Source of the DNA: Escherichia coli
GTDB lineage: Bacteria; Pseudomonadota; Gammaproteobacteria; Enterobacterales; Enterobacteriaceae
Direction: 5' to 3' (one strand)
DNA: 4,217 bases
NCBI RefSeq assembly: GCF_003334255.1
Contig: NZ_QOWU01000109.1
Shown here: piece after piece, positions 149-257 of the stretch
Layout of the letters: the number at the start of each line of letters is the position of its first letter
How positions within the stretch are numbered: the first letter of the stretch is position 1
The notes under the pieces: model-generated
Databases searched by the model: none
The model's input: the letters and a program-made list of their open reading frames with translations, nothing else
Told to the model about the DNA's origin: nothing
Program-made: the position numbers and the translations under genes

Positions 149-257
149 AATTTCCAAAGTCTGTTCACTGGCATTAGCAACGGAAAATATTGTTCTGAAT
201 ACGCTTCAGAACAAAACAGGTGCGGTTCCGACAGGAATACCGTTTTAGGGGGATAAT

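Follow-up and report, generated by a model that had tools for sequence, protein, structure and literature searches.

Introduction

GadB and GadC form the core of the strongest acid-resistance system of Escherichia coli; the two proteins are encoded in one operon and are made in very different amounts. To our knowledge, the gad regulation described so far acts entirely at the gadB promoter or in the gadB leader. The present analysis concerns hp2, a short inverted repeat in the spacer between gadB and gadC, within a 4,217-nucleotide stretch of the E. coli chromosome (contig NZ_QOWU01000109.1 of assembly GCF_003334255.1), which is called the window throughout and contains the 3′ end of gadB followed by gadC, digH (yddW) and the 5′ part of dosC. 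hp2 was found to be a real but modest element of the mRNA leader, an unannotated member of an ordinary kind, and it is tentatively read as a sense-strand stem-loop with an organising role in the gadC leader. No study of hp2 or of the spacer before gadC was found in the literature searched.

In malEFG and papBA, intercistronic hairpins or internal terminators set unequal expression within the operon. The rpoS leader contains an inhibitory stem in which the upstream leader pairs with the initiation region and which is opened by DsrA, RprA and ArcZ, and the gad regulon contains the cis-antisense RNAs GadY, opposite gadX-gadW, and ArrS, opposite the gadE leader. Stabilising 5′-proximal hairpins of the type present in the ompA 5′ untranslated region were reportedly described by Emory, Bouvet and Belasco in 1992. 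Unequal operon expression set by intercistronic hairpins or internal terminators was also found in ATP-binding cassette (ABC) importer operons in Clostridia (PMC9045158).

The features of the gadC leader and its borders, in window coordinates, are as follows.

1-102, + strand: 3′ end of gadB, stop codon TGA at 100-102, annotated as gadB under the BLAST matches (gadB of strain MG1655 at 1570645-1572045)
122-153, + strand: hp1, a 12-bp GC-rich stem (TGTCCCGAAACG 122-133 / CGTTTCGGGACA 138-149) with a 3′ end at 153
156-189, + strand: near-invariant block, ending in the A/U-rich linker GGAAAAUAU
183-189, + strand: the A/U-rich linker, directly before hp2
190-214, + strand: hp2, a 10-bp stem (190-199/205-214) with the loop UACGC (200-204)
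222-243, + strand: hp3, a small bulged hairpin predicted between hp2 and the ribosome binding site
247-253 and 258-260, + strand: gadC Shine-Dalgarno sequence AGGGGGA and start codon, predicted to be about 0.8 unpaired in the wild type
258-1793, + strand: gadC coding sequence, an open reading frame (annotated gadC start at MG1655 1570489)
159-178 with 261-277, + strand: tentative candidate long-range helix between the leader and gadC codons 2-7

The gadB-gadC spacer, like the intercistronic systems, was found to contain a strong hairpin and a mapped 3′ end after the gene of an abundant soluble product, followed by a membrane transporter gene; that role belongs to hp1, whereas hp2 has neither a + strand U-tract nor a mapped 3′ end. 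As in the ompA type, hp2 is a short leader stem-loop placed off the ribosome binding site that could block 5′-end-dependent RNase E, and at most 1-2 unpaired bases would stand ahead of it if an RNA begins at about 188-189. It differs in being internal to a bicistronic transcript, AU-rich and weaker, and the candidate 5′ end beside it comes from a single read of Hfq cross-linking, ligation and sequencing of hybrids (CLASH). The segment 159-178 is predicted to be able to pair with codons 2-7 and so to enclose hp2, hp3, the Shine-Dalgarno sequence and the AUG, which recalls the rpoS leader, but the gadC helix is context-dependent, shows no covariation and is not significant against natural sequence. 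Read on the - strand, hp2 has the look of a weak intrinsic terminator facing the leader of a gad gene, as with GadY and ArrS, but no transcript, start or 3′ end is known opposite hp2 on that strand. By the tests applied, hp2 does not qualify as a + strand terminator, as the sigma-70 promoter proposed there, as a repeated element or as a member of an Rfam family.

The inverted repeat and its structure

An 8-bp inverted repeat had been reported from the sequence-only reading, and it is present where it was placed, with GTTCTGAA at 192-199, TACGC at 200-204 and TTCAGAAC at 205-212. The repeat was found to be longer by two outer pairs (TTGTTCTGAA 190-199 / TTCAGAACAA 205-214), with 10-nt arms that are 100% complementary across a 5-nt gap, and 43 nt lie between the end of the stem and the gadC ATG at 258. 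The other motifs of that reading were recovered as well, namely the ACAGG copies (216-220, 231-235), TTCACT (164-169), TATTGT (188-193) and the GGA motifs at 234-236 and 251-253. The spacer of 155 nt (103-257) is identical to that of MG1655, and the first 2047 bases of the window differ from MG1655 at 2 positions; window position x corresponds to MG1655 1570747 - x on the minus strand.

The chance of such a repeat was estimated from 5000 dinucleotide-preserving shuffles of the 155-nt spacer, in which perfect repeats with a 3-8 nt loop were counted. A repeat of at least 8 bp was present in 2.3% of the shuffled spacers and one of at least 10 bp in 0.22% (P ~0.002), so that the statistical support, earlier called marginal, had been understated. 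Four distinct repeats of at least 10 bp were found in the 4217-nt window against 0.04 expected, all of them intergenic: hp2, hp1, the gadC terminator and the digH terminator. The folding energy of hp2 is -10.9 kcal/mol on the + strand and -11.8 on the - strand, which is ordinary because the stem is AU-rich, with three G-C pairs only; the symmetry of hp2 is unusual and its stability is not. In all 44 sequence contexts tried, the pair probability of hp2 was 0.94-0.95.

As an intrinsic terminator on the + strand, hp2 has no U-tract, and AAACAGG follows directly after the stem. No GGA is present inside hp2, as a CsrA-type site with GGA in the loop would have, and the element occurs at one place per genome in 5408 genomes, also when searched as 11-base words, which does not fit a repetitive extragenic palindromic (REP) or bacterial interspersed mosaic element (BIME) type repeat. 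Rfam covariance models run over the whole window and the spacer with expectation values (E) up to 10 gave nothing near the gathering score, the best score in 90-330 being 12.6 bits (E=4), and RefSeq contains zero annotated features within the gadB-gadC spacer on either strand. Pairing of GcvB with the CA-rich 3′ arm of hp2 was found to be no better than in shuffles, and no small open reading frame of the spacer outlasted the 1-nt indels present in the gadC loci L001, L003 and L089.

Position in the operon transcript

A Term-seq 3′ end was found at MG1655 1570594(-), or window 153, four bases past hp1 (PMC7815308 supplement 1); a second, at 1568900(-), falls within the U-tract that belongs to the gadC terminator (PMC7815308). 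The Term-seq tables for three growth conditions contain no other coordinate in 15705xx-15706xx on either strand and none at hp2 (PMC7815308). By SMRT-Cappable-seq (single-molecule real-time Cappable sequencing), the operon b1493/b1492 is transcribed from a transcription start site at 1572073, and among the entries listed, for limited conditions, none begins with b1492 (PMC6131387). Because of these 3′ ends and this operon, hp2 is placed inside the read-through gadBC mRNA; there is no evidence of a separate gadC transcript in the published maps, and hp2 is not a mapped RNA end. hp1, with an energy of -20.7 kcal/mol, a poor U-tract (ACAAUUU), four pairs with compensatory changes and G.U pairs that favour the + strand, has the appearance of an internal terminator or of an exonuclease stop, either of which would leave a gadB-only RNA.

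The palindrome could instead act as DNA, either as the operator of a dimeric regulator or as part of an internal gadC promoter with the repeat spanning the start site, and this is judged unlikely. The half-sites CTGAA (195-199) and TTCAG (205-209) are invariant with centres 10 bp apart and a free spacer between them, and the conserved stretch extends from about 8 nt upstream of TTCACT to the ATG, which resembles the conservation of the neighbouring digH promoter from its -35 hexamer onward. A weak peak of RpoH holoenzyme was also found by SELEX-chip (systematic evolution of ligands by exponential enrichment on a chip) in the gadC-gadB spacer at old coordinate 1568560, which is window ~211 (PMC5493296, Table 3). 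With an intensity of 2.3, this peak does not reach the cut-off of 3.0 given in the study, and the resolution is ~100 bp, at a probe spacing of 105 bp (PMC5493296); no sigma-32-like promoter was found behind it on the + strand, and the - strand was at background level. The internal promoter that the sequence-only reading had suggested, TTCACT/TATTGT, was not borne out: the hexamers match at 4/6 and 4/6 with a spacing of 18 (16 with AATATT at 186-191), under the 9/12 threshold, and the last T of TATTGT, at 193, is C in five of the eight Escherichia lineages compared below (L002, L004, L005, L006 and L081). Independent transcription of gadC likewise found no counterpart among the SMRT-Cappable-seq entries listed for limited conditions, in which the gadBC start was detected. 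The element is single copy and its symmetry is broken in most sister lineages. The palindrome is not known to match a regulator motif; those of Cra, ArgR, LexA, EvgA, DeoR, GlpR and PuuR have the wrong spacing or match it only in part. The suggested dimeric regulator site would have in its favour the invariant half-sites about one helical turn apart, and a promoter or a second copy behind it was not found.

Binding of CsrA has been shown only for the gadA and gadB leaders (PMC11210196). The Hfq CLASH tables contain single reads only, inside the gadC coding sequence, and no small-RNA partner for the gadC leader was seen in the tables searched (PMC7213987). One chimera joined to rRNA has a gadBC part that starts at window 188, two bases before the hp2 stem, which is anecdotal (PMC7213987).

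Conservation among Escherichia lineages

The comparison covered eight lineages: the window, six species representatives (L001-L006, E. albertii and E. whittamii among them) and the metagenome contig L081. The four-fold degenerate sites of gadC, of which 172 of 249 (69%) are variable, were used as the neutral yardstick; their divergence from E. coli is 30-39% per lineage and 11% in L003. The variability of the spacer was as follows.

103-121, before hp1: 13 of 20 columns variable (65%, including one gap column), not different from neutral
122-133 and 138-149, hp1 arms: 11 of 24 variable, with four compensated pairs, near neutral (P 0.13 and 0.045 per arm)
hp1 loop: 4 of 4 variable, not different from neutral
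156-189, near-invariant block: 3 of 34 variable, P=3e-13 against neutral
190-199 and 205-214, hp2 arms: 4 of 20 variable, P=9e-6 against neutral
200-204, hp2 loop: 4 of 5 variable, not different from neutral
222-243, hp3: 4 of 22 variable, P=1e-6 against neutral
244-257: 2 of 14 variable, P=4e-5 against neutral

To judge from these substitution patterns, the arms of hp2 are kept by purifying selection and the loop is not (loop against arms, Fisher p=0.023), and the whole gadC leader of 156-257 is similarly constrained. About 8 of the 43 columns of 215-257 vary. E. albertii and SCPM-O-B-8794 differ from E. coli by 34-38% in 103-155 and by 8-9% in 156-257, with 32-39% at the four-fold sites. The constraint was found to run on into gadC codons 2-9 and to fade by codon 16; over codons 2-9 it could be the ordinary constraint of a translation-initiation region. 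In the gadC-digH spacer, taken as a control, the terminator arms, the -35 and -10 hexamers and the leader are conserved and the remainder varies.

Out of the 10 pairs of hp2, 8 are matched in E. albertii and 9 in four other lineages, and L003 contains a 1-nt deletion in the 3′ arm. Conservation of the palindrome, which the sequence-only reading had put forward as a check, was confirmed for the arms in the eight lineages and not for the symmetry, which is broken in most sister lineages, nor for any homolog outside Escherichia. The changes at pair 193:211, read on the + strand, are as follows.

193:211, + strand: U-A in E. coli
193:211, + strand: C-G in SCPM-O-B-8794 (L004)
193:211, + strand: U.G in E1V33 (L001)
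193:211, + strand: C x A in E. whittamii, E69, L081 and E. albertii

Among 12 sequences, the pair was found as UA in six, CG in one, UG in one and unpaired C x A in four. Two separate substitutions repaired the mismatch, C-to-T in the branch of E. coli and A-to-G in SCPM-O-B-8794 and E1V33, which argues for pairing. The small hairpin hp3 has an energy no better than shuffles (z -0.36); in E. albertii its helix is retained in a shifted register with a + strand U.G pair, which points to a + strand RNA constraint in the same leader as hp2.

Conservation of this kind could also be present if hp2 had no specific function, the leader being conserved for other reasons and a repeat of 8-9 matches out of 10 having drifted to 10/10 in E. 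coli through one C-to-T transition. Such drift is considered rather improbable. It would agree with the 8/10 of E. albertii and the 9/10 of four lineages, with an energy that is not unusual, with the arm deletion of L003, with nine E. coli genomes carrying T206A without obvious consequence, and with flanks at least as conserved as the hp2 arms. It does not account for a loop that varies at the neutral rate beside arms that do not, for the repair of the 193:211 mismatch by two different substitutions, or for the low chance of a perfect 10-bp repeat. If hp2 is inert, the function lies in the constrained flanks 156-189 and 215-257.

Strand of the element

On the opposite strand, hp2 could end an unannotated antisense RNA, as its terminator or 3′ hairpin, the RNA running from the gadC start toward gadB. 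This is considered quite unlikely. The stem is followed on the - strand by the U-tract UAUUUUCC, and a simple terminator scan flags hp2; equally many sites were flagged in shuffles, and the stem has three G-C pairs only and an A/U-rich base. The long-lived C193/A211 state does not pair when read on the + strand, but on the - strand it makes a G.U pair. In E. whittamii, E69 and L081 the - strand energies are -11.7 to -11.8 kcal/mol and the + strand energies -6.5 to -6.6; the - strand energy in E. albertii is -7.6. On the - strand, 193:211 passes through A-U, G.U and G-C, as helices usually evolve, and L001 alone has a mismatch there. This strand argument hangs on essentially one site, and hp1 shows the opposite bias, as a + strand RNA would.

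The fold of 180-305 gave z=-4.6 on the - strand and -2.3 on the + strand. An additional - strand hairpin over 253-303 has an energy of -15.8 kcal/mol and z of -3.5 to -4.4, the sense strand having z ~0, but it is strong only in E. coli proper; in other lineages z is -0.5 to -2.2 and substitutions break the pairs, and it was set aside. Promoter-like sites on the - strand are weak, the candidates reaching at most 8/12; in the candidate at 336-308, the critical T of the -10 hexamer falls on a codon position that varies freely. No Term-seq 3′ end is found at 15705xx-15706xx on that strand in the three growth conditions, and no gene or RNA is annotated on the strand opposite the gadC start. An antisense RNA would further leave the invariant 156-183 unexplained, which lies beyond the 3′ end of such an RNA.

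Predicted folding and role of the leader

The small mRNA hairpin named by the sequence-only reading fits best: hp2 lies inside the gadBC transcript, its pair probability is ~0.95, and its arms are conserved and its loop is free. We lean, somewhat short of an even chance, to hp2 as a sense-strand mRNA stem-loop that organises the gadC leader, by which the ribosome site would be kept open or a stable gadC segment would be bounded. Transcription would start at the gadB promoter, and some of it would end, or be trimmed back, at hp1 (3′ end 153), followed by read-through of the remaining transcripts across the spacer into gadC. In these read-through transcripts, hp2 would fold locally and independently of context and would lock the U-rich 187-199, which then could not pair with the G/A-rich ribosome binding site, so that the Shine-Dalgarno sequence and the AUG would be open. 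A second, compatible role would follow if the linker 183-189 were cut: hp2 would be the 5′-proximal hairpin of the gadC segment, and hp1 would meanwhile protect the 3′ end of gadB. This possible 5′-proximal role is proposed because hp2 adjoins the A/U-rich linker 183-189.

hp2 is clear of the Shine-Dalgarno sequence, and only an indirect effect was predicted in silico. The unpaired probability of the Shine-Dalgarno sequence was 0.80 in the wild type, 0.56 with the 5′ arm complemented and 0.28 with the 3′ arm complemented, followed by a return to 0.80 with both arms complemented; T193C gave 0.37. The partner behind the predicted occlusion is 187-196, which pairs with 250-259. A designed anti-Shine-Dalgarno switch of these two segments was rejected, the duplex energy being equal to that of shuffles (P=0.53), and because of this value the opening is treated as generic insulation and not as a designed switch.

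Several observations weigh against the stem-loop as the organiser of the leader. The complementarity between 187-196 and 250-259 is no better than with shuffled upstream sequence (P=0.53), and a single hairpin at least as stable as hp2 was found in 27% of shuffles of the 102 nt after hp1. C193 x A211 is present in four lineages including E. albertii and gives + strand energies of -5.5 to -6.6 kcal/mol, and because of these four lineages the perfect stem is taken to be recent and the + strand helix not to be strictly kept. A double change was found at only one hp2 pair. L001 and L002 are E. coli-like in 103-155 (4% divergence), and recombination may lower the divergence in some lineages. The literature searched contained no start site, 5′ end, cleavage or processing, small-RNA or reporter data for the gadB-gadC spacer.

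The long-range helix 159-178/261-277 was found in the minimum free energy structure, the centroid and the RNAalifold consensus. Its probability is 0.6-0.9 only when the gadB coding sequence is left out; it was lost once that sequence was included, and it is kept as tentative. The duplex has P=0.011 against shuffles and 0.105 against natural windows. Both of its strands are invariant, so that covariation is impossible to see; among the six four-fold sites of gadC codons 2-8, one variant was found, A269G, which keeps a U.G pair.

On this helix a more far-reaching possibility could be built, in which about 125 nt (156-284) would form an Escherichia-specific dedicated riboregulator that gates GadC synthesis post-transcriptionally, hp2 being one part of it; we give it a low chance. 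In such a model 159-178 would pair with codons 2-7 and close a domain containing hp2, hp3 and the ribosome site, and a signal would set the balance of folds. The signal might be pH: under acid conditions the ancestral C193 x A211 would turn into an A+.C wobble, by which hp2 would be stabilised and the ribosome site freed. It might also be an RNA or a protein bound to one of the arms.

Apart from the role of hp2 itself, the more useful by-product is that the whole gadC leader of 156-257 is strongly selected and unstudied. Purifying selection over about 100 nt of this spacer, hp2 included, suggests that the level of the transporter is set or adjusted by a post-transcriptional layer, and the constrained leader gives precise positions for mutagenesis.

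Spacers of other genera

Eighty gadC loci were compared, and in Enterobacterales and many others gadB lies directly upstream of gadC. Their spacers usually open with a terminator-like hairpin, and often a further, smaller one stands 4-35 nt ahead of the gadC start. A covariance model of hp2 and hp3 run over 74 gadC loci found no homolog outside Escherichia (best E=1.4), only the ribosome site of Morganella being aligned. The second hairpins of Buttiauxella, Citrobacter, Providencia, Proteus, Yersinia and Serratia show the same layout as the E. coli spacer, but they have no sequence homology with hp2, and several contain a U-rich + strand tail that is absent in E. coli. As a universal feature of gadB-gadC spacers, the second hairpin was not upheld, being weakly better than shuffles over 34 spacers (mean z ~-0.6, a hand average).

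In Citrobacter sp. and Buttiauxella (L038, L048, L049, L051 and L053), a hairpin CATC.GCAGG...CCTGC.GATG was found to abut the gadC Shine-Dalgarno sequence. This second stem contains compensatory changes and G.U pairs on the + strand, and it is a clearer conserved gadC leader hairpin than that of E. coli. In L007, L023, L038, L039, L048, L051, L052 and L071, the gadB stop codon is followed at once by a CU-rich stretch whose predicted partner is the gadC Shine-Dalgarno sequence, a pairing that would enclose the spacer hairpins; the stretch is not present in E. coli. Such pairing would couple gadC translation to ribosomes finishing gadB.

Variation within E. coli

Of 5426 complete E. coli genomes, 5408 contain the 113 nt of 150-262, in a single copy each. 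The spacer is missing from 18 of the 5426, and it also occurs in five plasmid records. Of 5409 E. coli records, 5043 show no difference over positions 171-230. The sole common variant among the 5409 is the loop change C204T, found in 321 records; T206A, which breaks the stem, was found in 9. No allele of the cryptic clades was present in the E. coli complete-genome collection.

In E. coli KC-Dl-1 (L099), at about 380-440 of that locus, a natural deletion fuses the gadB 3′ end CAGGGTATT directly to CTGAATACGC. The deletion takes out hp1, the invariant block and the 5′ arm of hp2, and gadB is annotated as frameshifted; the strain is a potential natural mutant of the gadC leader.

Other features of the window

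Downstream of gadC, the window contains the following.

1924-3243: digH (yddW)
3261-3295: terminator hairpin of digH, 14 bp
from 3607: 5′ part of dosC, cut by the end of the insertion sequence IS1 at ~4141

A promoter-like pair TTGACT / GAGAAT is present upstream of digH at 1863-1890; its hexamers and the following leader are conserved across Escherichia, and the sequence between the hexamers varies. A start of b1491 at 1568850 is contained in the SMRT-Cappable-seq list (PMC6131387). The sole Rfam match in the window, Listeria rli61 at 3172-3299 (24 bits, E=0.34), was rejected as a chance match driven by the digH terminator. The dosC gene is broken by an IS1 terminal inverted repeat (window 4141-4217). 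Among the 5426 complete E. coli genomes, only 7 contain a place that covers this dosC-IS1 junction, and the window is accordingly taken to derive from an uncommon strain or from Shigella.

Between the gadC terminator and digH, E. whittamii (L002) and SCPM-O-B-8794 (L004) were found to contain an insertion of ~180 nt with REP-like palindromes (GCCGGATACGGCG..., AGGCCTGATAAGCGAAGCGCATCAGGC), which duplicates part of the gadC terminator region.

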